The notes under the pieces are model-generated. The model was given only the letters and a program-made list of their open reading frames with translations, had not been told where the DNA came from and did no database searches. A DNA stretch of 64,000 nt, taken from Candidatus Limnocylindria bacterium. Its GTDB lineage: Bacteria > Chloroflexota > Limnocylindria > QHBO01. A program made the translations under genes and the position numbers. Shown here piece after piece: positions 3,901 through 64,000 of the stretch (the stretch's first letter is position 1; each line of letters begins with the position of its first letter). Location: positions 3,285 through 67,284 of the forward strand of contig DATBJR010000043.1 in assembly GCA_036556325.1 (NCBI GenBank), written 5' to 3'.

Positions 3901-5641
<1,741 letters not shown>

Positions 5642-5661
<20 letters not shown>

Positions 5662-6943: not shown

Positions 6944-9053
<2,110 letters not shown>

Positions 9054-9057
<4 letters not shown>

Positions 9058-23091: not shown

Positions 23092-23696
23092 GGGACCTCC
23101 TGCTGGCGACCGCGAATCGCGGCAAGCAGCGAGAATTCGGCCGTCTGCTGGCCGGCATCCCCGGCCGGCTCGTCTTCCCGCAGGAGGTGGGCATCGACCT
23201 GGATGTGCCGGAGCCGTATCCGACCTACGCCGGCAACGCGGCTGCCAAGGCGGAGGCCTACTGCCTCGCATCCGGGCTGCTGACCCTGGCCGATGATTCC
23301 GGCATCGAGGTCGAGGCACTCGACTGGGGGCCCGGCGTGGTGACCGCACGGTTCGGGGGCGATGACGTGGCCGATCGGGTGGGGCTCCTGCTGGACGCGG
23401 TCGGCGACACGTCGCGTCGGGCGGCGCGCATGGTCTGCGTCCTGGCCTTGGCCACCCCTGCCGCGGGACCGGGCGGGTCGCCACGAATCGAGATCTTCCA
23501 CGGAGAGATGAGTGGCGAGCTGACGCGCCAGGCACGCGGCGATGGCGGCTTCGGCTACGACCCCGTCTTCCTCGGGCCGAACGGCCGCACGAACGCCGAG
23601 CTGCCGGAGGGCGAGAAGGACGCGATCTCGCATCGGGGCCGCGCGGTCGCGGCGGCCATGCCGCGGCTTCGCGAGCTGCTGCAGGCGCCGGCATGA
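23088..23696 (+). CDS. rdgB: non-canonical purine NTP pyrophosphatase (dITP/XTP pyrophosphatase) RdgB/Ham1 family
   Basis: [13 protein letters not shown]-terminus and GFGYDPVF motif. The classic rph-rdgB gene pair, with a 4-nt overlap. Confidence 0.9.
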
Positions 23697-26372: not shown

Positions 26373-26382
26373 GGCGCCGGAC

Positions 26383-27657: not shown

Positions 27658-27660
27658 TCA

Positions 27661-37045: not shown

Positions 37046-37122
37046 CGGGGCGTAGCGCAGCCTGGTAGCGCACCTGCTTTGGGAGCAGGAGGTCGCCCGT
37101 TCGAATCGGGCCGCCCCGACCA
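37046..37122 (+). tRNA. tRNA-Pro (anticodon UGG)
   Basis: Folded by hand. Acceptor stem CGGGGCG/CGCCCCG, D-arm GCGC..AGCGC, anticodon stem CCTGC/GCAGG with loop TTTGGGA (U33, anticodon TGG, G37), T-arm GCCCG-TTCGAAT-CGGGC, 3' A-CCA encoded. Confidence 0.9.
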
Positions 37123-46462: not shown

Positions 46463-46499
46463 CGACCACTCTCGCCCGGGCGTCTGCCCGCGCCCGCAG

Positions 46500-48985: not shown

Positions 48986-50461
48986 GGCCGCCCGCCCGCC
49001 CGGCAGCGACCAGGCCAGGCCCGCCAGCAGCGCCACCGCCAGGACGTCGCCGTTCATGGTCCGGTAGGGCCGATACAGGTCGTTGCCGAACAGGGTGGCC
49101 ATGGCCACGAACCCGATCAGCGCCAGGGCCACCGCGACGCCGGTGATGCGCTCGGGTGCGATCGTCGATCGGCGTGTCCCCAGCGCACGCCAGAGGACCA
49201 ACGCCAGGCCGATGGCGGCCAGCAGCGCGAACGGCAGCCCGTACTCGGCGGCCAGGTTCGGCAGCAGGTTGTGGGCGGACTGCAGCTCCGGCACGCTGGC
49301 ATCCGGGCGGATGCGCTCGAACTCGGCCTGAAACCCCCCTGGCCCCACGCCGAGCAGCGGGGACTGCGCGGTGATCTCGGCGGCGGCGCCCACGGCTTCC
49401 AGCCGAATGCCGATGGAGCCCGAGCCGTTGTACGTGTCCGGATCCCAGGATTCGACACGCCCCTCGCCCTGCATCCCGACCAGCAGCGACTCGTAGGCGG
49501 CGGCCACTCCGGGCGCGACGACGCGAAGGGCTGCCAGTGGGTAGGGAACCACCACCGCCAGCAGCAGCGCGATCACCGCCAGCAGCGCCAGGCGACGCCG
49601 CCAGCCGCGCACCAGCAGCAGCACCATCAGCGCAGCCACCAGCGCTGCCGAGAGCCAGGCACTCTTCGTGTACGTGAAGAACAGCGCGAGGATGATGAGG
49701 CCGATCGCGGCCCAGCCGACAAGGGTCGCGACCCGGCGCCGGCTGGCCCAGGGCCACGCGAACACGACGCTGGCGGCCGCCGGCAGGGCAACCACCAGCA
49801 TCGTGCCGAAGATGCCGACGTTGAAGTAGGTCAGCCGCGCGAACAGCATGCGCTGCTCGTACAGGTCGCGGGGCCCCACCACGATCAGCAGCCAGGCGAA
49901 GTTGAGGAGCGTGGCGACCACCACTCCGGCCGCCACCGCCAGCAGCGCGGCGGACACCTGGCGCAGGGTGGGCCGCAGGGCGAAGGCGACCGCGAACAGC
50001 GCGAGCGGCTCCAGCACGCCGTGCAGCGTGATGTTGACCGCGTCGTCGCGGGAGGGCGCGGCCAGCGTCGCGACCACGGCAAGGCCGGCTCCCAGGATCA
50101 TTGCGATCCAGGTCGGCCACCGGTTCCGCTCCTCAGCACGATCAGGGGTGCGGTCGAGCAGCGCGCCGACCGCCAGCGCTGCGATCACGATCGTCGCCGG
50201 CAGGACCTGGACAGGGCCGACCACCGCCTCGGCGCGCGCGACGTTGACGATGGGCAGGGCGGCCGCCAACAGCAGCAGCCCGGACCAGGGCCGAGCCACC
50301 GCCAGGACGACCATCGCCGCCGCCAGCGTCGCCGCCACCACGGCGGCCGCCACGCCGAGCGCCGGGGGCGCCTCGACCGGCCGGTAGGCACCGGCCATGG
50401 CCAGGGCGGCCACCGCGAGGGCCAGCGCGCCACCGGCAGTCCAGCGCACGGCGGTCGTCAC
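48887..50461 (-). CDS. O-antigen ligase/polymerase (Wzy_C domain) family membrane protein
   Basis: Polytopic membrane protein with a Wzy_C-like core (FFTYTKSAWLSAALVAALMVLLLV) and a periplasmic loop. The GTG start at 50461 overlaps the upstream GT4 stop (GTGA). The 3' end overlaps the convergent Wzx by ~100 nt, so one of the two ends may be shorter. Confidence 0.65.
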   Translation of the reverse strand: MTTAVRWTAGGALALAVAALAMAGAYRPVEAPPALGVAAAVVAATLAAAMVVLAVARPWSGLLLLAAALPIVNVARAEAVVGPVQVLPATIVIAALAVGALLDRTPDRAEERNRWPTWIAMILGAGLAVVATLAAPSRDDAVNITLHGVLEPLALFAVAFALRPTLRQVSAALLAVAAGVVVATLLNFAWLLIVVGPRDLYEQRMLFARLTYFNVGIFGTMLVVALPAAASVVFAWPWASRRRVATLVGWAAIGLIILALFFTYTKSAWLSAALVAALMVLLLVRGWRRRLALLAVIALLLAVVVPYPLAALRVVAPGVAAAYESLLVGMQGEGRVESWDPDTYNGSGSIGIRLEAVGAAAEITAQSPLLGVGPGGFQAEFERIRPDASVPELQSAHNLLPNLAAEYGLPFALLAAIGLALVLWRALGTRRSTIAPERITGVAVALALIGFVAMATLFGNDLYRPYRTMNGDVLAVALLAGLAWSLPGGRAASAGAAGPEAGEPLDQPADLGPSGRDEFQRPDA

Positions 50462-51513
50462 GTGAGCCGCTCGACGATCTCGGCCGCCCGGTCGTCCCAC
50501 GTCGAACCGGGCGCCACCGCGAGCGCGCGTGCCGCGGCAGCCAGCCGCTCGGCGAGCGCGGCGTCGCGCAGGACCGACAGCAGGCCGGCCGCGATGGCGG
50601 CGGCGTCATCGGCCACCAGCAGTCCTGCGCCCGACGGCGCCAGCAGGGCAGCCGTCTCGGCCGCCGCGGTGGCGACCACCGGCTTGCCCAGTGACAGGTA
50701 GTCGGCCAGTTTCACCGGCCGCGCCAGGTCGGTGTAGCGGTTGATCGGCCTGGGGATCACGCAGGCGCGCGCTGCCCCAAGCAGTCGCGGCAGGTCGCCC
50801 CGGCTGCCGGCCACGAGGTCGACCCAGTCCGGCAGGCTGCCGGCCGTGGAGCCGCTGACCACCAGCAGCCGCGCCGCCGGCAGCTCGGCGCGCACCAGCG
50901 CCATGGCGTCGAGCAGGCGGTCGAAGCCGTCGGCCGCGTTCAGGGCGCCGACGTAGGCCACGATTGGCTGTTCCCCGGCGCCCAGGTCCGGCTGCCGCGG
51001 ATCGGTCCCTGGCGGCAGGAGCACCGCTCGACGCAGCCGCAGGGCCGTCGCAAGGCCCGACGACGGGGCGAAGGGCACCGTGGCCAGCCGGCGCAGGAGG
51101 CGGATGCTGAAGCGCCAAGCCAGGTCGGACAGACGCTGGCGGAACGAGCCGGGCGGGTAGAGATCGCGGAAGAGCTGGTAGGCGTCACGAAAGTAGATCC
51201 CCACCGGGCGCCGCATGGCCCGCGCGGCGGCGAGTGCCAGCAGGTCCCATGGCATGCTGGCGCCGGTGGGCGACTCCACGTAGACGGCATCCACCCGGCG
51301 GAGCTGCCAGAGCACGTTGGGCAGGGCCGCGAGGCGCTGCCAGCGGCCGCGATCGGCGCGGACGAGGCGAGCTCGGCGCTCCAGGGCGTCGGCCAGCAGC
51401 GCGATCCGCACCCGCGGGGCGCTGGCCGGGATCCTGGCGTCGTACATGCCGTACAGCAGCAGGCTGGGGCGCCGGGGTGGCGAGTCGCGATGAGGCGCAG
51501 AGCCGTTGGCCAT
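50458..51513 (-). CDS. GT4-family glycosyltransferase
   Basis: A GT-B C-terminal segment (RPVKLADYLSLGKPVVATAAAE). The start is set to the ATG at 51513, 10 nt after the ppa stop. The longer track ORF reads through ppa in another frame. Confidence 0.75.
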   Translation of the reverse strand: MANGSAPHRDSPPRRPSLLLYGMYDARIPASAPRVRIALLADALERRARLVRADRGRWQRLAALPNVLWQLRRVDAVYVESPTGASMPWDLLALAAARAMRRPVGIYFRDAYQLFRDLYPPGSFRQRLSDLAWRFSIRLLRRLATVPFAPSSGLATALRLRRAVLLPPGTDPRQPDLGAGEQPIVAYVGALNAADGFDRLLDAMALVRAELPAARLLVVSGSTAGSLPDWVDLVAGSRGDLPRLLGAARACVIPRPINRYTDLARPVKLADYLSLGKPVVATAAAETAALLAPSGAGLLVADDAAAIAAGLLSVLRDAALAERLAAAARALAVAPGSTWDDRAAEIVERLT

Positions 51514-51523
51514 GCGAACGCGC

Positions 51524-52078
51524 CTAGCGCCAGGTGCCGGGGTTGGCCGCCTCGCCCTCGCTGTCGGTGCCGCGGCGCCCGGCCTCCGCGGCGGCGTCGA
51601 TGATGCGCCACGCCTCCTCCACGCCCAGCCAGCCGGAAACCTCGGTCGGACGACCCTCCAGCTCCTTGTAGATATCGAAGAAGTTTTCGATCTCACGCAG
51701 GCGATGCGGCGAGAGGTCCTCGAGCGTCTCGGTCTCGTCCCAGCGAGGGTCGTCGTGGGCCACGGCCAGGATCTTGAAGTCGTGGCCCTTCTCGTCCTTC
51801 ATGTCCAGCACGCCGACCGGGCGGGCGCGGACGATGCAGCCGGGGAAGGTCGGCTCGCTGATCACCACCAGGACGTCCAGCGGGTCGCCGTCATCGGCCA
51901 GGCTGCCATCGATGAACCCGTAGTCGCACGGATAGTGCACGCTCGAGTACAGCACGCGATCGAGGACGAATCGGTGCCGCGCGTGGTCGTACTCGTACTT
52001 GTTGCGGCTGCCGGAGGGAATCTCGACGGTGACCTGGATCGGCTCGCGCGCTGGCCCCATGGCGCGAGTATGCGGCAT
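51524..52078 (-). CDS. ppa: inorganic pyrophosphatase (family I)
   Basis: EIPSGSRNKYEYD, DGDPLDVLV and FKILAVAHDDPRWDE motifs. The alternative start MGPARE is 6 codons in. Confidence 0.9.
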   Translation of the reverse strand: MPHTRAMGPAREPIQVTVEIPSGSRNKYEYDHARHRFVLDRVLYSSVHYPCDYGFIDGSLADDGDPLDVLVVISEPTFPGCIVRARPVGVLDMKDEKGHDFKILAVAHDDPRWDETETLEDLSPHRLREIENFFDIYKELEGRPTEVSGWLGVEEAWRIIDAAAEAGRRGTDSEGEAANPGTWR

Positions 52079-52105: not shown

Positions 52106-54184
52106 TCAGGGCAGGTGATCGAAGGCCCAGCTGAGCTGCTGGGCGAGGACCGTCGTGATGGTGGCGGTCAGGTGCCCGTTGTTCCGGTAGACGAGGTAGT
52201 CGCCCAGGATCAGCGGGCACGAATCGGCGCGGCAGAGCCAGGGGATGGTCGGGATGAGGTGTGCGCCGCTGGCCGCCGTGGTGCGGTGCTCGAGCTCCTC
52301 GTAGGCGCTGCTCACCAGGCGACGGCGCGGCACGGTGCAGGCCTCGACGCGCCCCTCGGTGGCCAGGCAGCGCGGCGGGTCGAAGTGGAAGTGCGGCGAT
52401 TCGCCGATGAGCACCACCCGCTCGGTCAGCCCGCGCAGAGCGGTCAGGGTGCGGAGCATGCCTGACTCCCACCCGGCATAGGCATTCGTGGGCAGCGGTT
52501 GCCCGCTCGCGCTGACCAGCTGGTAGTTGCGCGAGCCCGCGACGAAGATGATCGCCGGATGCTCGCGCGCGATGACGTCCATCGCCAGCGGGCGCCATTG
52601 GTCGCACTCCGTCAGGGGTCGGTCGAGCGAGGGCCGCCAGACGGAGACCTCGAACGGGGGGCAGGCGACCTTGATGACGGGCACCACCCGCCAGTGGCGG
52701 TCCGCCGCCATCAGCTCGATGGCCGGCAGCCACATGGCCGCATGCGAATCGCCGTACAGCACGACGGTGGTGCTGCCCTGCTGGTCCCCGACGACGCACG
52801 GATCGGGCTGCGTCTCGACGATCAGGGTGACGCAGGTTTCCTGGCCGATGGGCCCCCGATCGTCGCGCGCCTGGGCCAGCGTCGGTCGCAGGCCCTCGGG
52901 GATCGGCCCGGCGAGGATCGGCTGAAGCAGGGCCGGCTGCGGATCACCGCTGGCCGGCAGGCTCGGCGCCGGGACGTCCGCGACGGGCGGCGCGAACAGG
53001 CTGCCGCTGACCAGGACGGCGGCCAGCGCCACGCCGAGCGAGGAGGTGCCGGCGAACGCCAGGGTCCGCACGGTGGCGAGGCGTGAGCCGCGGCCGACCC
53101 GGAAGGGGGTCTCGATGAACCAGGTGCTGAGCGCCGCCACCCCGATCGAGACCAGTGCCAGCGCGACCCGGACCCAGCCGCCGCCATGGCCGATGAGGAG
53201 CGGGCCCAGGATCAGGATCGGCCAGTGCCAGAGGTAGAGCGAATACGAGATGCGACCGAACCAGCGGGGCACCGGCGTCGCCAGCGCGCGTGCCGCGAGG
53301 GTCAGATGGCGCTCGCCACCCACGATGACCAGCGCGGTGCCGCCGGCCGGCAGCAGCGCCGCGAGCCCCGGGAATGGTGTGGATGGGCTGATCAGCAGCA
53401 CGCCTGCGCCGATGAGCGCCAGCCCGAGGGCCGTGGCCGTCGACGCAACGAGCGTCGGCCAGCGGGCCGGGATGGCGAGCACCCCCAGCGCCGCCAGCGC
53501 GCCCAGGGCGAGCTGCCAGGCGCGGGTCGGCAGTGAGTAGAACGCCCACGGCGCGTCGACCTGGGTGATCCACAGCGAAAGCGCGAACGAGGCGACCGCC
53601 ACCGCCACGGCCACCGCCCACAGGCGACGCACGGCCCACAGCCGGGCTGCAACCAGGAGCAGGAGCGGCCAGAACAGGTAGAACTGCTCCTCCACGCCCA
53701 GCGACCAGTAGTGGAGCAGCGGCGACGGGGCACTCTGCGCCGCGAAGTAGTCGGTCGCCACCAGGGCAAAGCGGTAGTTCGACACGTAGACCGCGGCCGC
53801 CGCTCCGTCGCGCGCGACGTCCGGGAAGTCGATGTCGGGCAGCAAGATCCACGAGGCGACCAGCGTCACGGCGATCGCGACCAGTGCAGCGGGCAGCAGC
53901 CGGCGAGCGCGCCGGGCGTAGAAGCGCGGCAGGTCGATCCGCCCCGAGCCGCGCAGCTCGCGCAGCAGGAGGCCGGTGATGAGGTAGCCCGAGATCACGA
54001 AGAAGACGTCGACGCCGATGAAGCCGCCCTGCAGGAAGGGGAGTCGGGCGTGGAAGGCCAGCACGGCCAGGATGGCGACGGCGCGAAGGCCTTCGATATC
54101 GGGCCGGAAGTGCTCGCCGCCGACGCTCGAGACGGCGGCATCCCACGCGGACGCCTCCGTCGACGCAGCGCGCGCGGGGGTCAC
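52106..54184 (-). CDS. OatA-like O-acyltransferase: acyltransferase-3 (OafA/YrhL) membrane domain fused to C-terminal SGNH hydrolase domain
   Basis: The Acyl_transf_3 signature (RPDIEGLRAVAILAVLAFHA..GFIGVDVFFVISGYLIT) and about 10 TM helices. The C-terminal domain has VLYGDSHA (SGNH block I). The GTG at 54184 overlaps the GT26 stop (GTGA). Confidence 0.85.
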   Translation of the reverse strand: MTPARAASTEASAWDAAVSSVGGEHFRPDIEGLRAVAILAVLAFHARLPFLQGGFIGVDVFFVISGYLITGLLLRELRGSGRIDLPRFYARRARRLLPAALVAIAVTLVASWILLPDIDFPDVARDGAAAAVYVSNYRFALVATDYFAAQSAPSPLLHYWSLGVEEQFYLFWPLLLLVAARLWAVRRLWAVAVAVAVASFALSLWITQVDAPWAFYSLPTRAWQLALGALAALGVLAIPARWPTLVASTATALGLALIGAGVLLISPSTPFPGLAALLPAGGTALVIVGGERHLTLAARALATPVPRWFGRISYSLYLWHWPILILGPLLIGHGGGWVRVALALVSIGVAALSTWFIETPFRVGRGSRLATVRTLAFAGTSSLGVALAAVLVSGSLFAPPVADVPAPSLPASGDPQPALLQPILAGPIPEGLRPTLAQARDDRGPIGQETCVTLIVETQPDPCVVGDQQGSTTVVLYGDSHAAMWLPAIELMAADRHWRVVPVIKVACPPFEVSVWRPSLDRPLTECDQWRPLAMDVIAREHPAIIFVAGSRNYQLVSASGQPLPTNAYAGWESGMLRTLTALRGLTERVVLIGESPHFHFDPPRCLATEGRVEACTVPRRRLVSSAYEELEHRTTAASGAHLIPTIPWLCRADSCPLILGDYLVYRNNGHLTATITTVLAQQLSWAFDHLP

Positions 54185-54975
54185 TTCCGCCGCGCGCGGA
54201 GCATCCACCAGAAGAAGCGCGGGTCGTCCCAGAGGTAGCGGCGCGCCAGGCGGCGCGGATCATGGACGAGCCGATACGCCCATTCCAGGCCGACCCGCGT
54301 CATCCACGCCGGCGCGACCGGTTGCCTGCCGCCGAGCACGTCGATCGCCTGGCCGATGCCGACCATCACTGTGCGTGGCAGCGCGGCGGCGTGGCGCGCC
54401 ATCCAGCGATCCTGCTTCGGCGAGCCAAGCCCGACGAACAGGACCTGCGGATCGGCATCGGCCAGCAGCCGCACCGCCGCCTGGTCGGCCTCGCCGCCGA
54501 TTGCGAAGCCCATGGGCGGCGAGGTCGCGGCCCGCACATCGCCACCCAGCTCGCGCAGCCGCTGCGCCGCCGGCTGGGTGGCGCCCGGCAGCCCGCCCAT
54601 CAGCGCCAGGCGCAGCCGGTCGGGGTGGCGCGCCAGCGCGGCCGGCAGCAGCCGTCCGGTGATGCTGCCGCGCAGCGGGCTGCCCGCCAGGCGCGCGCCG
54701 TACACCACACCCATGCCATCTGGCACGCGTAACCGCGCCCCGTCGATGATGGCGCGGAAGGACGGGTCGCGATGCGCGCGGACCACGTAGTCGACGTTGG
54801 TGGTGACCACGTACCCGCCGCTGCCCTCCCGCGCCCAGCCGGCGATGGTCTCGACGGTGCCCTCGAAGCCGATGTCGTCGACGGCAATGGAGTCGATCTG
54901 CACCCTGGGACGGGTGGCCGGTGCATCGGTCGCGCGGCGGTCCGACGAGGCGATGGCAGGAATGTTGCTTTCCAA
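54181..54975 (-). CDS. GT26 WecG/TagA/CpsF-family glycosyltransferase (N-acetylmannosamine/ManNAcA transferase)
   Basis: GT26 motifs (RVPDGMGVVYGARLAG, VLFVGLGSPKQDRWM). Confidence 0.85.
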   Translation of the reverse strand: MESNIPAIASSDRRATDAPATRPRVQIDSIAVDDIGFEGTVETIAGWAREGSGGYVVTTNVDYVVRAHRDPSFRAIIDGARLRVPDGMGVVYGARLAGSPLRGSITGRLLPAALARHPDRLRLALMGGLPGATQPAAQRLRELGGDVRAATSPPMGFAIGGEADQAAVRLLADADPQVLFVGLGSPKQDRWMARHAAALPRTVMVGIGQAIDVLGGRQPVAPAWMTRVGLEWAYRLVHDPRRLARRYLWDDPRFFWWMLRARRK

Positions 54976-55049
54976 GGGCTGTTAGCCTAGCGCGCGCGAT
55001 CCTCGCCGCGCCCGCCACCGGGGGGTGACAGGAGGTCCAGCTCCCGCCC

Positions 55050-55937
55050 GTGCTGCCAACGTTCCTGATCGGTGGTGCGCCGAAGGCCGGCACCACCGCG
55101 CTGTGGGCGCTGCTCGACGCGCATCCCGAGGTCTTCATGACGCGGATGAAGGAACCGCGCTTCTTCACGCGCAACCTGAACGAGCCCGCGCCCGGCGTCC
55201 ACATGATCGGGCCACCTCGCCGCGTGAACTTCGACCGCGGGATCGACTGGTACCAGTCGCTGTTCGCGGGCAGCGAGGGCGCGCTGGCGCGCGGAGAGGC
55301 GAGCCCGCAGTACATCGGCGCGCAGGATGGGCCGGAGATCATGGAGCGCTGGGTGCCGGGGGTGAAGATCGTGTTCGCCCTGCGGCAGCCGGTCGAACGT
55401 GCCTACTCGCAGTACTGGCAGCATTGGAAGAAGGGCTGGCGGATGGCGCCCTTCGAGCGGCTGCTCGAGGACGAGCCGAGCCTGCGCTATCTCGAGTACA
55501 TGAGCCGCTATGCCCAGCATCTCGAGCGCTATCGCCACGCTTTCGGCCCGGAACGGGTTCATCTCGTCCTGTTCGACGACCTCCGCAAGGAACCGCAACG
55601 GGTCTACCGGGAGCTGTGCCGCTTCATTGGCGTCGATGACACGTTCCAGCCCGCGTCGTACGACGAGGCCTACAACGAGTTCACGTCGCCGCGGTTTCGC
55701 TGGCTGCAGCGCGGGCTGATGGCGACGCACTTCGCACGGTTCGGCCGGCTCGTCCCGAGCGGCGCGCGGCCGCGGCTGCGCCGGCTCCGCCTCCGGGTCG
55801 AGGGCATGAACCGCAGCGCCAGCCGCTATGTGCCGCTCGACCCTGCATTGCGCGCGCGGCTGACGGAGCGCTTCGAGGACGACATCGCCTACGTGGAGCG
55901 CCTCACCCGGCCACTTCCCGAATGGCGAGCGCGCTGA
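55050..55937 (+). CDS. sulfotransferase family protein, type C (Sulfotransfer_1-like)
   Basis: The N-terminal 5'-PSB motif FLIGGAPKAGTTAL, and 3'-PB-like RQPVERAYSQY. Confidence 0.8.
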   Translation: MLPTFLIGGAPKAGTTALWALLDAHPEVFMTRMKEPRFFTRNLNEPAPGVHMIGPPRRVNFDRGIDWYQSLFAGSEGALARGEASPQYIGAQDGPEIMERWVPGVKIVFALRQPVERAYSQYWQHWKKGWRMAPFERLLEDEPSLRYLEYMSRYAQHLERYRHAFGPERVHLVLFDDLRKEPQRVYRELCRFIGVDDTFQPASYDEAYNEFTSPRFRWLQRGLMATHFARFGRLVPSGARPRLRRLRLRVEGMNRSASRYVPLDPALRARLTERFEDDIAYVERLTRPLPEWRAR

Positions 55938-55938
55938 T

Positions 55939-56838
55939 TCAGCCGGTGCGGCTCCAGGCGCCCAGGTCGCGACCGATCAGCTCGCCCAGGGCGGCGACCT
56001 CCGGGGCGAGCTCGGCAGTCAGCCGGCGACGGAGCTCGGCATCCATCGGCCGTCGCGCCTCCGGGACGCTGTTGGCGCTCACGACCGTGTCCCGCAGGCG
56101 GTGGACCAACGGGAAGCGACGGAGCAGCGGGACGACCCGGCGCAGCGGGCCCGGCGGGCGGTAGATCAACCGCTGCAGCACGCCGGAGCGCGCCCGGCGA
56201 TTCGGATTGCGCACTCCCAGGTCAACCCCCACGTTCGGGTCAACGCGGAGGAAGGCGAACGTGCCACGCACCACGGCGGCTGCATCGGCGACCAGGTCGT
56301 CGTGGACGATGACGTGGACCCGCTCGCGACCGAAGACGTCGAAGTAGCGCTGCAGCTGCTCGGCGAAGCGGACGCTGTGCCGGTAGAACAGCGCCTCGCG
56401 CCGCAGGGCGCCCGCCGGGATGCGACGTCCAGCGCGCCGATCGGCCTCGGCGGCCAGCGCCTCGCCGAAGTCGACCAGGTCTTCCCGCTGGTTGAAGCGC
56501 AGCTGGCTGTGCTGGGCGTGCATCACGTCGACCGGGTTGCGCAGCATGACGATCGCCTGGGCCCCCGGCGAGAAGGCCTCGATCTCGCGCGCCGCGCTCG
56601 CCGAGTAGAGGTACCACGGCGAGGCCTCGCCGACGCGCTGGCCCGGGCGGGCATCGGCGAAGAGGCGAAGGTACTCGTCCTCGGTCATGCGCCGATACCG
56701 GGCATCCAGGTCCGCCCCGAAGTACATCGGCTCCTTGTGGAACGGCATGAACACCTGCGGGTGCTGGCGCAGGGACTCGTAAAGCGACGTGGTGCCCGCT
56801 TTGAAGGCACCGACGATGAAGAAATCGGGGCGCGTCAT
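55939..56838 (-). CDS. sulfotransferase family protein, type C (paralog 2)
   Basis: FFIVGAFKAGTTSL PSB motif, and MLRNPVDVMHAQHSQ. It is about 55-60% identical by eye to the next gene. The ATG overlaps the upstream paralog's stop (ATGA). Confidence 0.8.
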   Translation of the reverse strand: MTRPDFFIVGAFKAGTTSLYESLRQHPQVFMPFHKEPMYFGADLDARYRRMTEDEYLRLFADARPGQRVGEASPWYLYSASAAREIEAFSPGAQAIVMLRNPVDVMHAQHSQLRFNQREDLVDFGEALAAEADRRAGRRIPAGALRREALFYRHSVRFAEQLQRYFDVFGRERVHVIVHDDLVADAAAVVRGTFAFLRVDPNVGVDLGVRNPNRRARSGVLQRLIYRPPGPLRRVVPLLRRFPLVHRLRDTVVSANSVPEARRPMDAELRRRLTAELAPEVAALGELIGRDLGAWSRTG

Positions 56839-57749
56839 GCGGCGCGGACGCGGGAGCCGTCCAGCCAGGCCGACAGGTCGCGCCCCACCAGCTCGCCCAG
56901 CTCCCTGATCTGCGGCGCGAACTCCTCCAGCAACCGGCTTCTGAGCGTCGCGTCCATGGGAGGCCGGCTCGCGGCGGAGCTGTTCAGACGCAGCACCCGC
57001 TCGCGCACGGCATGCGCCAGCGGGAAGCGGCGGATGATGGGCACCAGCCTCAGCAGCGGACCGGGTGGCTGGTAGACGAGCCGCTGCAGGGCGCGGAAGC
57101 GGACGCGCTTGTTCGGGTTGCTGACGGCGAAGTCCGGGGCGAACGTCGGGTCCACGCCCAGGAACTCGAGCACGCGACGATAGGTGCCCGGCGTGTCGGC
57201 CACGAAGTCGTCGAAGACGATCACATGCACCCGCTCGCGGCCGAAGGCATGGAGGTAGCGGCGCAGCTGGTCGGCAAAGCGGACGCTCTCTCGGTAGTAG
57301 AGGTTCTCGACTCGCAGCGGCCCGGGTGGAAGGCGGCGGCCAGCCCGCCGTTCCGGCTCGGCGTCGAGCGCCTCACCGAAGTCGGCGATGTCCTCCTCCA
57401 CGTTGAACAGCAGCTGGCTGTGCTGGGCGTACATCACGTCCACCGGGTTGCGCAGCATCACGATGATCTTCCCCCCCGGCGCGGCAGCGTGGATCTCCGT
57501 TGCCGCCGAGCGGGAGTACAGGTACCAGGCCGATGCCTCCCCGATGCGCTGGCCGGGCTTGGCGTCCGCGAACAGGGCTTCGTACTGGGCGCGGGTCATG
57601 CGCCCGTAGCGACGGGTCAGATCGTCGCCGAAGAACAGCGGCTCCTTGTGAAAGGGCATGAAGATCTGCGGGTGCGGTCGCAGGTAGTCGTACAGGGCCG
57701 TGGTGCCACACTTGAAGGCACCCACGATGTAGAAGTCCGGAATCGGCAT
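56835..57749 (-). CDS. sulfotransferase family protein, type C (paralog 3, tandem duplicate)
   Basis: FYIVGAFKCGTTAL PSB motif. Long nucleotide stretches are near-identical to 55939-56838, for example the GTGCTGGGCGT(G/A)CATCACGTC(G/C)ACCGGGTTGCGCAGCAT segments. Confidence 0.8.
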   Translation of the reverse strand: MPIPDFYIVGAFKCGTTALYDYLRPHPQIFMPFHKEPLFFGDDLTRRYGRMTRAQYEALFADAKPGQRIGEASAWYLYSRSAATEIHAAAPGGKIIVMLRNPVDVMYAQHSQLLFNVEEDIADFGEALDAEPERRAGRRLPPGPLRVENLYYRESVRFADQLRRYLHAFGRERVHVIVFDDFVADTPGTYRRVLEFLGVDPTFAPDFAVSNPNKRVRFRALQRLVYQPPGPLLRLVPIIRRFPLAHAVRERVLRLNSSAASRPPMDATLRSRLLEEFAPQIRELGELVGRDLSAWLDGSRVRAA

Positions 57750-57869
57750 GGATCGTCCTGCGAAGGTGGCCGAGCGTTGCCGCCCGCCCTGTTAGCCTAC
57801 CGTGAGCGCGAACTCGGCGGCTCCAGCCACCGGCGGCGCCCGGTGGAGGAACCTTGAGGAGACGGCTGC

Positions 57870-59501
57870 TTGACTGAGGCCTGGATTCCTGCCGATCACG
57901 GCAGCGGGCAGCAGGGCCTGCGCCGCCAGGTTGCGCGCGGCCTGACCTGGACCTTCGTCCACACCTGGGGCGGCCAGCTGCTGAGCCTGCTGGTGTTCCT
58001 GGTGCTGGCCCGCCTGGTCAGCGTCAACGATTTCGGGCTGGTGGCCTACGCCGCGCTCTTCGTGGCCTTCGCCCAGCTGCTGATCGACCAGGGCTTCGGC
58101 GACGCGATCATCCAGCGGCCCAGCGTCACCCGTGGGCACATCGACACCGCCTTCTGGGTCGCGGTTGCCACCGGGCTGCTGCTGTCGGTGATCGGCGTGG
58201 TCATCGCCGCACCGCTGGCGAGTTTTCTCACCGGCAAGGCGCCGGCCGATGCGCCGCGGCTGACCCCCATCATCCAGGTCCTCTCGCTGTTGTTTGTCAT
58301 CTCGTCGCTCAGCAGCACCCAGCAGGCGCTCCTGCGCCGCGAGCTGGCGTTCCGCAGCCTGGCCACCCGCGGCCTGCTGGCGCTGGGCGGCGGCGGCGTG
58401 GTGGGGATCGTCATGGCGTTCATGGGCTTCGGCGCCTGGGCGCTGGTCGGGCAGCAGATCGCGGCCGCGCTGATCGCGGTCGTCACCCTGTGGACGATCA
58501 GCCCGTGGCGCCCGGGCCTGGAGGTTTCGCGGGCGAACTTCACCGAGCTGTTCAACTTCGGCATCAAGGTCGTCGGCTCCGACATCCTGACCTTCCTGTC
58601 CCGCAACAGCGACAATTTCCTGGTCGGCATCTTCCTGGGCCCGACGCCGCTCGGCCTGTACGCGGTCGCCTATCGGATCCTGGACACGACCCAGAAGGTG
58701 CTCGTCAGCGTCTCGCGCCGGTTGGCATTTCCAGCCCTTTCGAAGCTCCAGGGCGACCGGGAGCGGATGTCGCGGGCGTACCTGCAGCTGACGCGGATCG
58801 CGGGTTCGGCCATCCTCCCGGGCTACGTCGGCCTGGCCCTGGTGTCGCCGGAGATGACCGTCGCCCTCTTCGGTGCCAAGTGGCAGTACGCCGGCGTCGT
58901 CTCCTCGGTGCTGTTCCTCATCGGCCCGGTCCTCTCGATCCAGGCGTTCTCGACCTCGCTCCTGACGGCAGCCGGCCACCCGTCGATCGTGTTCCGCTTC
59001 CGGCTGATCAGCACGATCGTCAACGTGCTCGGCTTCTTCCTGGCGGTGCAGATCGGTAAGGACATCCTGTGGGTGGCGTTTGCCTTTGCGTTGCGCGGCT
59101 ACCTGCTCCTCCCGCTGAACCTGTCATGGCAGCGACGGTACGCCGGCATTCCCATTGGCGCGTACCTGCTGCAGATGCGCGGCACCGCGCTGGCCACGCT
59201 GGCGATGACGGCGGTCGTGCTGGCAGTGAAGCTGCTGCTGTACGGGGTGCTTCGACCGACGCCGCTGCTGCTCGTGGAGGTCGTCGCCGGCGCGGTGACC
59301 TTCCTGCTGGCGATGTGGCTGCTGGACCGCCGCCTGCTGCTCGAGATGTGGCGCATCACCCGCCAGAGCGTCCCCGGCCTGCGCCGCTTCTCCGGCGTGC
59401 TGCCGCGCGGTCGGCCGCGGGCGCTGGCCGAAGCCTCGCGTGAGCCCGCGGCCGAGGCGAAAGCGGATCCGCTCAGCCCATCGATCCGGGGCGACGAATG
59501 A
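57870..59501 (+). CDS. Wzx-type flippase (MOP/PST polysaccharide biosynthesis protein), second copy
   Basis: 14 TM-helix PST-family topology with an N-terminal conserved segment (GLTWTFVHTWGGQLLSLLVFLVLARL). Confidence 0.8.
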   Translation: MTEAWIPADHGSGQQGLRRQVARGLTWTFVHTWGGQLLSLLVFLVLARLVSVNDFGLVAYAALFVAFAQLLIDQGFGDAIIQRPSVTRGHIDTAFWVAVATGLLLSVIGVVIAAPLASFLTGKAPADAPRLTPIIQVLSLLFVISSLSSTQQALLRRELAFRSLATRGLLALGGGGVVGIVMAFMGFGAWALVGQQIAAALIAVVTLWTISPWRPGLEVSRANFTELFNFGIKVVGSDILTFLSRNSDNFLVGIFLGPTPLGLYAVAYRILDTTQKVLVSVSRRLAFPALSKLQGDRERMSRAYLQLTRIAGSAILPGYVGLALVSPEMTVALFGAKWQYAGVVSSVLFLIGPVLSIQAFSTSLLTAAGHPSIVFRFRLISTIVNVLGFFLAVQIGKDILWVAFAFALRGYLLLPLNLSWQRRYAGIPIGAYLLQMRGTALATLAMTAVVLAVKLLLYGVLRPTPLLLVEVVAGAVTFLLAMWLLDRRLLLEMWRITRQSVPGLRRFSGVLPRGRPRALAEASREPAAEAKADPLSPSIRGDE

Positions 59502-60850
59502 GCGAAGACCTGGATCGAGCAGCGTCATCGGCCGCCGCAGGCAAGCCGGCTGGGCCGACGGAGCAACCGCCGGAGCTCGGCAAGGCGATGTGGGGCCTGA
59601 CGGGAGCGCGGCCTGGCCTGCGGATGGCGGCCAAGTTCGCACGGCGCAACGCCATGTCGGCCGTCTTCCTGGCCAGCCGCCTGTCGCGTCGCGACAAGCG
59701 GGTGTGGCTCTTCGGCAACCACAAGGGCTTCCGTGACAACCCGCGCTACCTGGCCGAGCACATCGTGGCCGAGCATCCCGAGATCGAGGTCTGGTGGCAG
59801 GCTCGCAGCCGCCGGGAGGCGGAGGCGGCTCGCGCGGCGGGGCTCAAGGTCGTGCTGCGCAGCTCGCGGACGAGCGCACGGCTGCACCTGCGGGCCGGCG
59901 TGGCCTTCCTCTGCTCCGGCTTCATGGATCTCCGCGTGCCGCGGCTGGGCGGCGCCTACATCGTCCACCTCTACCACGGCACGGCGCTGAAGCGGATCTC
60001 CCTGGACGTCGACTTCGAGCGGTTCGTGTCCGGGTCGCGCTTCGGGCGCTGGTACGCCGCGCGGCAGCACGCGGGGCTGCAGTCGCGCCATCGCCGCGTC
60101 TCCATGGTGGTTGCGGCCGGTGAGCTGGCCAGGCGCCGCTTCGAGACGGCCTTCGGCCTGCCGCCGGAACGCATCCCGATCCTCGGTACACCGCGCTTCG
60201 ACGTGATCCTGGGCGGTCCGGCCTATCGGCGCGTGGCCGGCGACGACCTGCGCGGGCGCCTGGGCATCGGCGCCGCCGACCACCTGGTGCTGTGGCTGCC
60301 GACCTGGCGCGAATCGGGCGACGCCGGCTGGCTGCCGGCCGTCGACAGGGCCGCGGTGGACAAGGCGCTCGGGGGTTCGAAGGTCCGGATGCTGGTCAAG
60401 CCGCATCCCTACGCGGACTTCGACGTCTACCGCCAGCGCCTGCCCGATCACCCGGCCCTGCGCCTGCTCCGCGAGGATGACACCGACGTCAACGCCCTGC
60501 TGCACATCGCCGACACGCTGGTGACCGACTACTCCAGCGCCATGTTCGATTACGCGCTGCTCCATCGGCCCATCCATTTCTTCGCCCCGGATGCCGCCGA
60601 GTACACCGAGGGTCGTGGCTTCTACGAGCCGTACGACGAGCTGACCGGTGGCCATCAGCATCTCGCCTGGGGCACGCTGCTGCCCGCGCTGCGAGAGGCC
60701 GCCGAAGGCACGGACGCGGCCGGCCTGGCCATGGCCGAGCGCATCGCCGCGCTCGCTGGCAACTGCGAGGAGCCAGGCAACAACGAGCGAATCTTCCGCG
60801 CCGTCGCCGAGGCCGCCGGCGTGCCGCTCCCGGACGGACGAACGGCATGA
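59498..60850 (+). CDS. CDP-glycerol:poly(glycerophosphate) glycerophosphotransferase family (TagB/TagF-like, Glyphos_transf)
   Basis: Signature segments HLVLWLPTWRE and ADTLVTDYSSAMFDYALLHRPIHFFAPD. It overlaps the Wzx stop by 4 nt. Confidence 0.85.
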   Translation: MSEDLDRAASSAAAGKPAGPTEQPPELGKAMWGLTGARPGLRMAAKFARRNAMSAVFLASRLSRRDKRVWLFGNHKGFRDNPRYLAEHIVAEHPEIEVWWQARSRREAEAARAAGLKVVLRSSRTSARLHLRAGVAFLCSGFMDLRVPRLGGAYIVHLYHGTALKRISLDVDFERFVSGSRFGRWYAARQHAGLQSRHRRVSMVVAAGELARRRFETAFGLPPERIPILGTPRFDVILGGPAYRRVAGDDLRGRLGIGAADHLVLWLPTWRESGDAGWLPAVDRAAVDKALGGSKVRMLVKPHPYADFDVYRQRLPDHPALRLLREDDTDVNALLHIADTLVTDYSSAMFDYALLHRPIHFFAPDAAEYTEGRGFYEPYDELTGGHQHLAWGTLLPALREAAEGTDAAGLAMAERIAALAGNCEEPGNNERIFRAVAEAAGVPLPDGRTA

Positions 60851-62145
60851 GCGAGGAGACGCCGCGCGCGATCACGGCGCCCATCAAGGCCCTCCAGGAC
60901 GAGCGCGGCGCGCGTCGCATGGTCACCAGCTTCGTGCGGCGCATCGGCGGGGCCGGCATCTACTACCTCAGCCACCTGTCGCGGCGCGACCCGACAGTGT
61001 GGGTGTTCGGCAATCACAAGGGCTTCCGCGACAATCCACGCTACCTGGCCGAGCACATCGTCCATGCCCATCCCGAGCTGGAGCCATGGTGGATCGCCCG
61101 CACGCCCGCCGAGGCGCAGCTGGCCAGGGATGCCGGCCTGCACGTGGCCATGTTCGCCGGCAAGCTCGGGGCTCGCATCCAGCGGCGGGCAGGGGTGGGG
61201 TTCCTCTCGAACGCCTTCATCGACCTGCGCTCGCCGTACCTCGGCGGCGCGCTGATCGTCCACCTCTACCACGGCACCGCCCTCAAGCGGATCCTGCTGG
61301 ACATGGACGTCACCCGGGTCATGCGTGGCTCGCCCCTGACGCGGGCGTTCAAGCGACTGCATCGCTGGTCGATCGCCCGCCGGCTGCGCCAGGTGGACCT
61401 GATCATGGCCGCCGGCGAGCTCGCGCGGGAGCGGTTCGTGACGGCCTTCGGCATCCCGGCGGAGCGTATCCCACCGGTCGGCACGCCGCGCTTCGACGTC
61501 ATCCAGGGGGGCGCCGCCTACGACCGCGTGGTGCACGGAGACCTGCGCGCCCAGCTTGGCGTGCAGCCGGACGAGCACCTGGTGCTGTGGCTGCCCACCT
61601 GGCGCGAGCACGGGGATGCTCCCTGGCTGCCGGCGCTCGACGCCTCGACGGTCGAAGCGGCGTTCGGGCGCACCAACGTGGTGATGCTGGTCAAGACCCA
61701 TCCGTATGCCGACCAGGAGGTCTACGAGCAGCGGCTGCCGCCGCATCCGAAGATCCGCCTGCTGCCCGAGGCGGACGTGGACGTCAACACCCTGCTGCGC
61801 ATCGCCGATACGCTGGTGACCGACTACTCCAGCGCCTTCTTCGACTACGCCCTGCTGGAGCGGCCCATCCACTTCTTCGCCCCCGATACGGACGAGTACC
61901 GTGGTGGACGGGGACTCTACGAGCCGTTCGAGAGGCTGACGGGCGGGCAGCACCACACCGAGTGGCACTCGCTGCTGACGGCGCTGGCGGACGCGTCCCG
62001 CGGCGAGGACGAGCAGGGCATGGCCATGATGCGCCGCGTCGTCGCCTTCGCCCGCAACAACACCGAGCCGGGCAGCTGTGAGCGCATCGTGCAGACCGTG
62101 GCACAGGCGGCCGGGGTGCGGCTGCAGCCCGCCCGCGCCGACTAG
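60847..62145 (+). CDS. CDP-glycerol glycerophosphotransferase family (TagF-like), tandem paralog
   Basis: The same signatures (HLVLWLPTWRE, ADTLVTDYSSAFFDYALLERPIHFFAPD). Extensive nucleotide identity to 59498-60850. The ATG overlaps the preceding stop. Confidence 0.85.
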   Translation: MSEETPRAITAPIKALQDERGARRMVTSFVRRIGGAGIYYLSHLSRRDPTVWVFGNHKGFRDNPRYLAEHIVHAHPELEPWWIARTPAEAQLARDAGLHVAMFAGKLGARIQRRAGVGFLSNAFIDLRSPYLGGALIVHLYHGTALKRILLDMDVTRVMRGSPLTRAFKRLHRWSIARRLRQVDLIMAAGELARERFVTAFGIPAERIPPVGTPRFDVIQGGAAYDRVVHGDLRAQLGVQPDEHLVLWLPTWREHGDAPWLPALDASTVEAAFGRTNVVMLVKTHPYADQEVYEQRLPPHPKIRLLPEADVDVNTLLRIADTLVTDYSSAFFDYALLERPIHFFAPDTDEYRGGRGLYEPFERLTGGQHHTEWHSLLTALADASRGEDEQGMAMMRRVVAFARNNTEPGSCERIVQTVAQAAGVRLQPARAD

Positions 62146-62885
62146 GACGGCGGCGGCTCCAGGAACTTCGGCAGCAGCCGGCGCGCGGTTTCCAGGTCCT
62201 CGGCGAAGTCGATCTCGGTCCACGCGCGCCCCCGGGTTGGCACGGCGACGGCGTCGGCGCCGCCGTCGGCCAGGAGCCGGTTGATGGCCGCCTCGAAATA
62301 GGAGCCGATGGCGCCGTCCGCCACCTCCCGCTCGATGGCGTCGACCAGCCCGGGCACGATCCGCGCCCGGAACAGCCCGATCCCGATGAACTCGCCCGCC
62401 GTCCGCTCGTCCGGAAGCTCCTTGGAGAGGTGCAGGATGCGGTCGCCCGCGACCTCGGCCTTCATCTGCTCCGGCTCGCACGCCCGCAGGTCGACCGGCA
62501 GCGCGATATCGGCTTCGGCCGCCAGCAGGTCGTCGAGGATGGTCGGGTCGAACACCGTATCGGCATGGGCGTAGACGAAATCGTCATGGAGCCGGTCGCG
62601 CGCGAACCAGGCCGAGCCGAGCACGTTCGTCACGCTCCAGAACGGGTTGAAGACGAACTCCAGGCCGATGCGTCCCGCGGCGCGCCGCTCGGCCGCCGCC
62701 TGCAGCAGATCGCGGCGATAGCCGGTGACCAGCACCGCTCGCCCGACGCCGCGCGCGATGAGCACCTCCAGCTGGAGCTCCAGCGGGCTGATTCCGCCCA
62801 GGTCGATCAGCGCCTTCGGCCCGTCGTCGGTGAGGCCGCCCAGCCGCGACCCGCGTCCGGCAGCCATGATCAGCGCATCGGTCAC
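62142..62885 (-). CDS. sugar/alditol-phosphate nucleotidyltransferase (GT-A-like NTP_transferase fold; candidate CTP:glycerol-phosphate or ribitol-phosphate cytidylyltransferase)
   Basis: N-terminal IMAAGRGSRLGGLTDDGPKALIDLG nucleotide-binding loop. The GTG at 62885 overlaps the upstream dehydrogenase stop (GTGA). The 410-aa track ORF is a frame artefact extending upstream. Confidence 0.7.
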   Translation of the reverse strand: MTDALIMAAGRGSRLGGLTDDGPKALIDLGGISPLELQLEVLIARGVGRAVLVTGYRRDLLQAAAERRAAGRIGLEFVFNPFWSVTNVLGSAWFARDRLHDDFVYAHADTVFDPTILDDLLAAEADIALPVDLRACEPEQMKAEVAGDRILHLSKELPDERTAGEFIGIGLFRARIVPGLVDAIEREVADGAIGSYFEAAINRLLADGGADAVAVPTRGRAWTEIDFAEDLETARRLLPKFLEPPPS

Positions 62886-64000
62886 CAGCTCGCCTCGTAG
62901 AGGGCCGTCAGCGCGTCCGGATCGGTGGGTCCCGGGTCGTTCTCCAGCGTTCCCTCGACCATGCCCGCCAGGCGGGGCAGATCCTCGCGGCGGATGCCCA
63001 GGTCGCGCAGGCGCGGCTGCAGGTCGATGCGCTCCATGAACGACAGCACCGAGGCGGCGACCGCCGCGGCCGCGTCGCCCTCGTCCCGGGCGGCACTGCC
63101 GATGCCCGCCGCGAAGGTGGCCAGCCGCTCCGGAGCGTGCCGCAGCACGCGGTCCAGCCACGCCGGCGTGAGCGCCGCCACGCCGGTGGCATGCTCGCTG
63201 TGCGCAACTGACCCCAGCGGGTACTGCATCCGGTGCGGCAGGCAGGTGGTGGAGTTGGCGAGGTTGACGCCCATCAGCATCGCCGCGTAGGCGGCGGCCG
63301 AGCGCGCCGCCAGGTCGCCGGGCTGCGCCATCGCTCGCGGCACGGCGTCGAGCAAGCGTGGCAGCGCCTCCCATGCCAGCGTGCGCGTCACCGGGCTGGC
63401 GGCGCGCGAGATCGTCGTCTCCACCGCGTGAGCCACGGCATCGAAGCCGGCGCGGGCCGTGACCCGCGGCGGGCAGCCGACCGCCAGCTCCGGATCGACG
63501 ATCGCCGCGCGCGCGGCGACGCCGCGGCCCCGAATGCCATGCTTCCGGCCGGTGTCGGGGTCCGTCACGATCGCGCCGCGGCTGACCTCCGCGCCGGAGC
63601 CCGCCGTGGTGGGCAGCGCGACCACGGGCAGCCCCACCGGGCTGTCGAAGCGGGGCCCGGTGGCCAGCTGCTCAGCATCCAGCACCGAGTGCGCGCTGAC
63701 GGCCGCCGCCTTGGCCAGGTCGATGACACTGCCACCACCCACCGCCACCACCACCGTCGCCCCGTGCTCCCGGAACGCGTCGGCCGCCGCCAGGACGCTG
63801 CCGAGCTCGGGTTCCGCGGTCACCTGGCAGCGGACCACGGCCTCCACCCCCGCCGCCCGCAGCGCGTTTTCGATCTCCGCGCCGTGCGGTCCGGCGGCGA
63901 GCGAGTGCGCGCCGGTGACAAGGGCTGCGCGCTCGCCGAACGCGGCCGCGATCCTGCCGACCTCGGCCCGCCGGCCGACGCCGAAGGAGACGGTCGTATC
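62882..64000 (-). CDS. iron-containing alcohol dehydrogenase / glycerol(-1-phosphate) dehydrogenase family (DHQS-like fold); 5' end beyond window
   Basis: A GGGSVIDLAKA glycine-rich NAD motif, DPDTGRKHGIRGRGVAARAAIVDPEL, and metal-His motifs (AVAHAVE, H..TGVAALTP). The frame stays open to the window edge. Confidence 0.7.
   Translation of the reverse strand, partial: DTTVSFGVGRRAEVGRIAAAFGERAALVTGAHSLAAGPHGAEIENALRAAGVEAVVRCQVTAEPELGSVLAAADAFREHGATVVVAVGGGSVIDLAKAAAVSAHSVLDAEQLATGPRFDSPVGLPVVALPTTAGSGAEVSRGAIVTDPDTGRKHGIRGRGVAARAAIVDPELAVGCPPRVTARAGFDAVAHAVETTISRAASPVTRTLAWEALPRLLDAVPRAMAQPGDLAARSAAAYAAMLMGVNLANSTTCLPHRMQYPLGSVAHSEHATGVAALTPAWLDRVLRHAPERLATFAAGIGSAARDEGDAAAAVAASVLSFMERIDLQPRLRDLGIRREDLPRLAGMVEGTLENDPGPTDPDALTALYEASW

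Follow-up and report, generated by a model that had tools for sequence, protein, structure and literature searches.

A close described counterpart of the genes considered here is the genetically studied synechan (xss) cluster for a sulfated exopolysaccharide (EPS), carried on plasmid pSYSM of Synechocystis sp. PCC 6803, which holds the sulfotransferase XssA (sll5042) along with Wzx/Wzy, a WecB/TagA/CpsF glycosyltransferase, and a second sulfotransferase of another subfamily, XssE (PMC8205485). In the Gram-positive Actinoplanes missouriensis, the Wzx/Wzy cluster wps-1 encodes WpsH, a predicted heparan sulfate (HS)-type sulfotransferase, beside WpsB, a sulfotransferase of a second family, with sulfation itself predicted only (PMC13390465). 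Three adjacent paralogous sulfotransferases, Teg12, Teg13, and Teg14, are known from a glycopeptide cluster, where they sulfate amino acids AA3, AA6, and AA4 of the teicoplanin aglycone, respectively (PMC11727664). Here we describe three sulfotransferase genes, S1, S2, and S3, in 64,000 nucleotides (nt) of DNA from Candidatus Limnocylindria bacterium (assembly GCA_036556325.1, contig DATBJR010000043.1, forward-strand positions 3,285 to 67,284; this whole stretch is referred to as the window). Candidatus Limnocylindria is a class of Chloroflexota that is abundant in soil and freshwater and for the most part uncultured.

An earlier reading of this DNA, hereafter the original prediction, took S2 and S3 to be a freshly duplicated tandem pair and saw in the expansion by duplication a suggestion that sulfation positions on a polymer had diversified. 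We find instead that the pair is old and has been retained in many related genomes, and what remains is not a snapshot of ongoing gene-family birth, as the fresh duplication is wrong, but an uncharacterised HS-like sulfotransferase branch fixed as a two-gene module in the surface-glycan loci of an uncultured Chloroflexota class.

A tandem pair older than the genomes sampled

All three genes lie exactly where the original prediction had placed them (Table 1) and match Pfam sulfotransferase families, with scores for S1, S2, and S3 of 65.8, 48.0, and 60.1 bits against PF13469 (Sulfotransfer_3; cut-off 27) and of 55.7, 21.7, and 34.2 bits against PF00685 (Sulfotransfer_1; cut-off 22, which S2 just misses). 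Genes were chosen by a GC content at third codon positions (GC3) above 0.85 together with domain matches, because long spurious open reading frames (ORFs) arise on both strands at the GC content of this DNA (70–74% throughout the window; the genome is called 72% GC). GC3 is 0.89–0.90 for each of the three genes, the coding signature of a 72% GC genome; long ORFs on the strand opposite to the trio (e.g., 56101–57075 and 57012–57857 on the plus strand, 54987–55730 on the minus strand) fail the GC3/GC2 coding filter that the sulfotransferase frames pass and were rejected as GC artefacts. The stop codon of S3 and the start codon of S2 share the four nucleotides ATGA (minus-strand reading across the junction: GCATGACG), which on its sequence is a case of translational coupling. 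S1, the more divergent member (31–35% protein identity to S2 and S3), faces S2 tail to tail, a single nucleotide separating the stop codons. S2 and S3 give a gap-free alignment of 295 residues at 64% identity (63.5%; E 7e-139) and are hence of one architecture. The common sulfotransferase type of the three genes, the overlapping tandem pair, the convergent third gene, and the shared architecture of S2 and S3 had all been correctly recognised.

The claims of recency and of long near-identical DNA runs did not hold. Pairwise identity and the ratio of nonsynonymous to synonymous substitution rates (dN/dS), which the original prediction had itself suggested as a check, came to 63.5% for protein, 69.7% for DNA, and 0.36, with a Nei–Gojobori dS of about 0.8. 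The longest exact runs measure only 21, 17, 12, and 12 nt and encode HAQHSQL, MLRNPV (the 3′-phosphate-binding motif), HKEP (the catalytic base), and LGEL, the first three of which are cofactor-binding and catalytic motifs. Identity in sliding windows reaches 92% in the best 60-nt window, and runs from 59% in the worst to 81% in the best 150-nt window; a repeat search returned 77% over 300 nt and 74% over 237 nt. Since strong codon bias might distort dS, four-fold degenerate sites under identical amino acids were checked against local codon usage, and third bases agreed at 54% of 107 such sites versus 47% expected (standard deviation 4.8%), indicating that synonymous sites are saturated. Gene conversion was considered as the source of the identical runs and rejected: the runs sit at catalytic motifs, and S2 and S3 are 61–66% identical within each of three further genomes (L001, L002, and L003; L-numbers denote the related loci described below), much as in the window, which implies the absence of concerted evolution.

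The age of the pair follows from its relatives, scanned with one genome per species, which returned 76 loci. In a neighbour-joining tree of 144 homologues, S2 falls in a clade of 27 sequences (related loci contribute 26; bootstrap 75%) and S3 in a clade of 32 (70%), and the two clades are united with 98.5% bootstrap. S2 and S3 are thus each other's closest paralogues, and as their clades are sisters, tandem duplication, as originally proposed, is their likely origin; its supposed recency is refuted. Both clades are represented in 26 of 33 species-level loci, and in 25 of these 26 an S3-type gene is followed by an S2-type gene, side by side on one strand. Of the 25 pairs, 12 retain a 4-nt (A/G)TGA overlap, the others having spacers of 10–385 nt or inserts of 1–2.7 kb (L013, L018, and L022); an S3-type gene stands without an S2-type neighbour in L005, L009, L030, and L037. 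The order Wzx-S3-S2-WecG recurs across related loci, more than 20 genomes having the pair flanked by Wzx and WecG/TagA, and WecG directly follows S2 in relatives, with a 4-nt overlap of the S2 stop and WecG start in at least six loci. Together, these overlaps and the recurring order point to S3-S2-WecG as the ancestral operon.

Identity to orthologues tells the same story. Orthologues of S2 and S3 in L001–L004 are 78–92% identical to the window copies. Among the 120 best matches listed for S3, all are at least as close to S3 (65–100%) as S2 is (64%), and among the 120 best matches listed for S2, all are 66–92% identical, none being further from it than S3 (64%); the matches listed for both carry the source name Candidatus Limnocylindria. 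Values of dN/dS against orthologues are 0.09–0.17 for S2, 0.13–0.23 for S3, and 0.13–0.22 for S1. The S2/S3 duplication is therefore older than the split among the sampled genomes of Limnocylindria and Limnocylindrales, and purifying selection has acted on both copies ever since. The DNA is not near-identical, synonymous divergence is not low, and both types are present in 26 loci, unlike a recent duplicate; sister clades, conserved order and orientation, and purifying selection on both copies are those of an ancient, retained pair.

Fold, motifs, and predicted function

The closest solved structure by sequence is PDB 3RNL (E 3.5e-41 for S3 and 5.7e-28 for S1), followed by the HS 3-O-sulfotransferases (3-OSTs) 3-OST-1, -3, and -5 and the sulfotransferase domain of NDST1. 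An AlphaFold2 model of S3 (predicted local distance difference test score, pLDDT, 93.1; predicted template-modelling score, pTM, 0.90) also retrieves 3rnl first with Foldseek (E 7e-20), and then the HS 3-OSTs and NDST1 (E 1e-12 to 1e-8), with template-modelling scores (TM-scores) of 0.63–0.87 that are normalised to the target and refer to single-domain chains. Judged by its sequences, the trio belongs to a known class, the polysaccharide-cluster sulfotransferases of the HS/XssA-like branch. No NCBIfam model matches S1, S2, S3, or ST4, a further sulfotransferase of the window, and a fifth, ST5, gives only a far-sub-threshold match to NoeE; it is the lack of a model for S1–S3 that leads us to call their branch uncharacterised.

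The catalytic residues are conserved throughout (numbering of S3; 66 S1/S2/S3-type sequences compared). K35, E36, R100, and P102 are invariant in 66/66, and K13, G15, T16, and T17 of the 5′-phosphosulfate-binding (5′-PSB) loop are conserved in at least 90%. This loop reads PKAGTT in S1, where it is canonical, FKAGTT in S2, and FKCGTT in S3; no complete sequence of the S2 or S3 clade lacks its lysine, and K, KEP, and R are fixed in both clades. S1 has the catalytic-base motif KEPRFF and the 3′-phosphate-binding (3′-PB) motif RQPVERAYSQY. In an alignment to 1t8t, the Glu of KEPxFF matches the Glu of GAEPHFF in HS 3-OST-3, which is the catalytic base of the 3-OSTs according to published structures. 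Fold and motifs suggest 3′-phosphoadenosine 5′-phosphosulfate (PAPS) as the sulfate donor of all three enzymes. None contains a hydrophobic segment (maximum Kyte–Doolittle hydropathy over 19 residues below 1.2), and each N-terminus begins a few residues ahead of the PSB loop, so that S1, S2, and S3 are predicted to be soluble cytoplasmic enzymes, acting in the cytoplasm.

The reading that we prefer, with a probability of roughly 0.6, is that S1–S3 are PAPS-dependent cytoplasmic sulfotransferases of the HS-like/XssA-like carbohydrate branch, which add sulfate to the undecaprenyl-linked oligosaccharide of a cell-surface glycopolymer ahead of its export by the adjacent Wzx flippase, S3 and S2 being non-redundant. 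Assembly of this glycopolymer would start with the WecA-like and WecG/TagA-like enzymes encoded in the window; glycerol phosphate (TagF-like enzymes) and acyl groups (AT3-SGNH) would be added next, and the LCP ligase would probably anchor the product to the wall. S3 and S2 stem from one tandem duplication, have been kept as a translationally coupled S3-S2(-WecG) operon, and would provide two non-redundant activities, most simply towards two different acceptor hydroxyls or residues. Both copies have been retained over the long term, under purifying selection and with their catalytic residues intact, which suggests non-redundancy and also fits the plausible idea that they sulfate different positions of one polymer. 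Gene structure, family, fold, motif conservation, synteny, selection, and the age of the duplication are results of the analysis; the PAPS donor, a glycan acceptor, cytoplasmic timing, and distinct regiospecificity of S2 and S3 are inferences. S1 is a more distant paralogue that, only in the lineage of the window, lies antisense in the gap from S2 to WecG; the promoter-like motif found ahead of Wzx is present in a separate copy upstream of it.

Several points weigh against this proposal. No gene for adenosine 5′-phosphosulfate (APS) kinase or ATP sulfurylase was found in the window (Pfam on all called genes; tblastn with the APS kinase of a relative) or in L001–L004, the contigs of the closest relatives, a search confined to these sequences. 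The Ser of the 3′-PB motif, which contacts the 3′-phosphate in HS enzymes, is Ala in S2 and S3 of the window, so that donor binding may differ in detail. Only five conserved positions discriminate the S2 from the S3 clade (L/M38, P/A144, N/A149, L/V253, and I/V281), mostly by conservative changes, which is thin evidence for differing acceptor specificity; as a search for acceptor-pocket sites of type II divergence, this result does not discriminate between the hypotheses and was set aside. The bootstraps of the single clades are moderate and come from a neighbour-joining tree, and no member of the S1–S3 subfamily is known to have a biochemically defined acceptor.

The relatives bear on two of these points. 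At the 3′-PB position, Ala occurs in 32/32 S3-clade and 13/27 S2-clade sequences, while outgroups have 51 Ser versus 27 Ala and S1 has Ser; as the residue varies across the wider family, the substitution is not read as a loss of function. As for the donor, tblastn places an APS-kinase gene (PF01583) no more than 10 kb from the S3-type gene in 23 related loci (e.g., L078:2926–3468, L012:5218–5757, and L025:7018–7533), usually abutting another sulfotransferase paralogue, and in the complete chromosome of a relative it overlaps the end of such a paralogue at a distance of about 6 kb from the pair. These neighbourhoods make a good comparative case that the related loci run on PAPS, a case that does not extend to the supply in the source organism.

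The main rival holds that S2 and S3 form a heteromer, in which catalysis might fall mainly to one subunit and the other might confer specificity or act as a scaffold, with the ATGA coupling keeping their amounts equal. The 4-nt overlap preserved over long evolutionary time in 12/25 loci, the co-occurrence of both types in 26/33, and the scarcity of specificity-type differences between the clades would all suit such a complex. Every catalytic residue is nevertheless kept in both copies, stop/start overlaps are common between unrelated operon genes (S2 and WecG overlap alike in several loci), and the loci with an S3-type gene lacking an S2-type neighbour, or with 1–2.7 kb between the pair, speak against it; we regard the heteromer as unlikely. 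Quite improbable, too, is an acceptor other than a polysaccharide, that is, a glycolipid, small metabolite, or peptide, with the glycan genes as mere neighbours: Sulfotransfer_1 and Sulfotransfer_3 also hold lipid, Nod-factor, glycopeptide, and polyketide sulfotransferases, the CurM sulfotransferase and TPST appear lower in the Foldseek list, and ST5 has its weak NoeE match, but the nearest neighbours in structure and sequence are polysaccharide sulfotransferases (HS 3-OSTs, NDST1, and XssA), Wzx and WecG/TagA enclose the pair in the genomes noted above, often in one overlapping operon with WecG, and no nonribosomal peptide synthetase, polyketide synthase, or lipid-synthesis genes are nearby among the annotated genes of the window. 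That all three enzymes are redundant copies kept for dosage of one reaction would agree with their common fold, identical catalytic residues, and few clade-specific sites; yet persistence at 64% identity over many species-level genomes with dN/dS of 0.09–0.23 would not be expected of such copies, and S1 is far more distant still, which makes this explanation highly improbable. A recent lineage-specific tandem duplication with diversification ongoing in the source genome has in its favour the adjacency, shared orientation, equal length class, and gap-free alignment of S2 and S3 and the existence of the 17- and 21-nt runs, and is practically untenable given the saturated synonymous sites, the closer orthologues (up to 92%) of each copy elsewhere, and the same order and equal divergence of the pair in other genomes.

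Surroundings of the trio

The preferred reading, sulfation of a lipid-linked glycan before export, draws on the genes around the trio, which are collected in Table 1.

Table 1. Sulfotransferase trio and surrounding features (window coordinates)
Feature	Position	Strand	Remarks
S1, sulfotransferase, divergent member	55050–55937	+	295 aa; GTG start; Pfam match
S2, sulfotransferase, downstream member of tandem pair	55939–56838	−	299 aa; Pfam match
S3, sulfotransferase, upstream member of tandem pair	56835–57749	−	304 aa; Pfam match; AlphaFold2 model
ATGA overlap of S3 stop and S2 start codons (4 nt)	56835–56838	−	Junction read from sequence
CTGTTAGCCTA, extended −10-like motif	54979–54989	+	71 nt upstream of S1 start; sequence search
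CTGTTAGCCTA, second copy	57789–57799	+	81 nt upstream of Wzx start, in S3-Wzx divergent intergenic region; sequence search
Wzx-type flippase (Polysacc_synt_3)	57870–59501	+	Divergent from S3; domain match; S3-adjacent position conserved
Two TagF-like glycerophosphotransferases (59498–60850, 60847–62145)	59498–62145	+	Domain match; conserved in L079
Nucleotidyltransferase (~62142–62882) and Fe-alcohol dehydrogenase (62882 onward, cut by window end)	62142–64000	−	Domain matches
WecG/TagA/CpsF-family glycosyltransferase	54181–54975	−	Pfam PF03808 6e-44; NCBIfam EpsA/TarA-like
AT3-SGNH O-acyltransferase	52106–54208	−	Domain match
GT4 glycosyltransferase, 442-aa membrane protein (weak MATE/MOP match), Wzy_C protein, GT1 glycosyltransferase, inorganic pyrophosphatase	46167–52078		ORF starts approximate
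LCP-family ligase	38118–39686	−	Domain match
WecA/TagO-like initiating transferase	37156–38121	+	Domain match
ST4, sulfotransferase (Sulfotransfer_2)	36240–36968	−	Other subfamily
ST5, sulfotransferase (Sulfotransfer_3, XssE-like)	35293–36225	−	Likely ATG start at 36225, 15 nt after ST4 stop
Hexapeptide acetyltransferase, UDP-GlcNAc 2-epimerase, GFO/IDH/MocA oxidoreductase, UDP-ManNAc/UDP-Glc dehydrogenase-family enzyme, GT2	23693–28452	+	

Downstream of S2, the minus strand carries the WecG/TagA, AT3-SGNH acyltransferase, inorganic pyrophosphatase, GT1, and Wzy_C genes, and GT4 enzymes are also encoded upstream in the window, within the same glycopolymer region. With ST4 and ST5, which stand head to tail, the window holds five sulfotransferases in total; ST4/ST5 homologues occur 4–8 kb from the S3/S2 pair in Limnocylindrales loci, and many relatives have four to six sulfotransferase genes within 10–20 kb. 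The block at 23693–28452 looks like a ManNAc(A)-type (N-acetylmannosamine or its uronic acid) nucleotide-sugar supply that would suit the WecG/TagA enzyme.

The location of S1-type genes varies from lineage to lineage. Its orthologues, with 77–86% identity, occupy the same antisense position in L001 and L003, and only in these two loci and the window does S1 lie between S2 and WecG, interrupting the S3-S2-WecG unit seen elsewhere; in L004 (402–6814), an S1-type gene instead stands after wzx and shares its strand.

At the other end of the region, the nucleotidyltransferase and Fe-alcohol dehydrogenase may supply an activated polyol phosphate. In L079, the orthologue of the dehydrogenase has 382 aa, and genes for an FGGY-family kinase and an aldolase precede the nucleotidyltransferase and dehydrogenase genes (L079:1273–5631). 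An N-terminal truncation of the dehydrogenase by frameshift was considered and rejected, given the length of that orthologue and a frame open to the window end. Together with the TagF-like genes, this set may resemble the three-gene route to CDP-2-glycerol (Gtp1–3) of pneumococcal capsules.

Exactly two copies of the 11-mer CTGTTAGCCTA are present across the window versus 0.13 expected, and the motif resembles an extended −10 element (TGnTAnnnT). An exact search for it in the related loci gave no match, and a one-base variant, CTGCTAGCCTA, was found by reading intergenic regions, upstream of S1 in L001 and in the S3-Wzx region in L001–L004. The two forms may represent a promoter shared by S1 and wzx. 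A consensus promoter scan of 54000–58500 found no promoter-like site, and a terminator scan of the same interval found one terminator-like site, inside wzx, versus 1.4 expected; neither scan was informative.

Other features of the window were observed in passing. Within the glycopolymer region, a GGDEF diguanylate cyclase gene (39907–41526, plus strand) adjoins the LCP ligase gene, and a GGDEF homologue is also found near the pair in L017. The sole Rfam match in the window is a tRNA gene (37046–37119, plus strand) between ST4 and the WecA-like gene. A complete-looking GlgE-type alpha-glucan set extends over 1710–13081 (GlgE, a TreS-like amylase, a maltokinase cap domain, isoamylase, 4-alpha-glucanotransferase, and GlgB). 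Just after mreB/mreC, a gene at 15962–17731 (plus strand) encodes a protein with Big_5, and its neighbour at 17852–21208 (plus strand) an 1118-aa protein with GH18, fn3, SH3, FlgD-Ig, and Big_5 domains.

Comparison with known systems

Sulfated lipopolysaccharides, capsules, and EPS have been reported from rhizobia and marine bacteria, and to call bacterial sulfated polysaccharides essentially cyanobacterial is accordingly too strong. They are nonetheless stated to be known essentially from cyanobacteria, both in the work on synechan (PMC8205485) and in the 2026 Actinoplanes paper (PMC13390465). In the literature searched, no paper treats Limnocylindria, or the polysaccharides of Chloroflexota, in connection with sulfotransferases. 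We tentatively suggest, as a possibility that falls well short of probable, that Limnocylindria build a multiply sulfated, peptidoglycan-anchored, teichoic-acid-like wall glycopolymer by means of a class-wide, ancient S3-S2 module (possibly a heteromer), lineage-specific paralogues, and, in many members, an in-cluster APS kinase. If so, Chloroflexota, a phylum from which no sulfated wall polymer is known to have been described, would turn out to possess one. Were chemistry to bear the prediction out, the range of sulfated cell-surface glycans would reach beyond cyanobacteria, and S1, S2, and S3, together with the XssA-like enzymes, would become candidates for regiospecific enzymatic sulfation of polysaccharides. 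The locus is a useful glycobiology lead to sulfated wall glycans, although it would not surprise a specialist.

Among structures, PDB 3RNL, a sulfotransferase of Alicyclobacillus acidocaldarius, is 31% identical and matches over the full length, including the C-terminal helices; it is a structural-genomics entry that is not known to have a published function and adds nothing on specificity. The animal enzymes 3-OST-1, -3, and -5 and the NDST1 domain share the fold with a Foldseek probability of 1.0 and target-normalised TM-scores of 0.63–0.75, obtained with isolated 3-OST and sulfotransferase-domain chains, and have in common with S1–S3 the PSB-loop lysine, the catalytic Glu of KEPxFF, and the 3′-PB arginine. 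They differ in being only 16–20% identical and in acting on the finished polymer in the Golgi lumen, and S2 and S3, unlike them, have Ala in place of the 3′-PB Ser and an extra helical insert at about residues 120–155.

Teg12/13/14 offer a precedent for adjacent paralogues that each serve one position of one scaffold. The analogy is one of logic only, as their acceptor is a peptide aglycone of an antibiotic pathway and they are absent from the sequence and fold matches of S1–S3. WpsH and WpsB, which we liken to the window genes by description, belong to an actinomycete and a sporangium matrix polymer and include no tandem pair.

The synechan cluster offers a homologue of all three genes. XssA is 28–31% identical to S1–S3 (E 1e-21 to 1e-28), a homologue and not an orthologue, and shares with them the HS-like branch and the KEPxFF and RxPxDRxxSxY-type motifs. 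Like that cluster, with its second sulfotransferase XssE resembling ST5, the window has the xss-type gene set, namely XssA-like S1–S3, XssE-like ST5, Wzx, Wzy_C, WecG, GT1, and GT4, its sulfated product being predicted only. Synechan differs in being a released cyanobacterial EPS whose cluster has a single gene of the S1–S3 subfamily and no tandem paralogue pair, and, unlike the window, that cluster is devoid of TagF-like, LCP, and AT3-SGNH genes.

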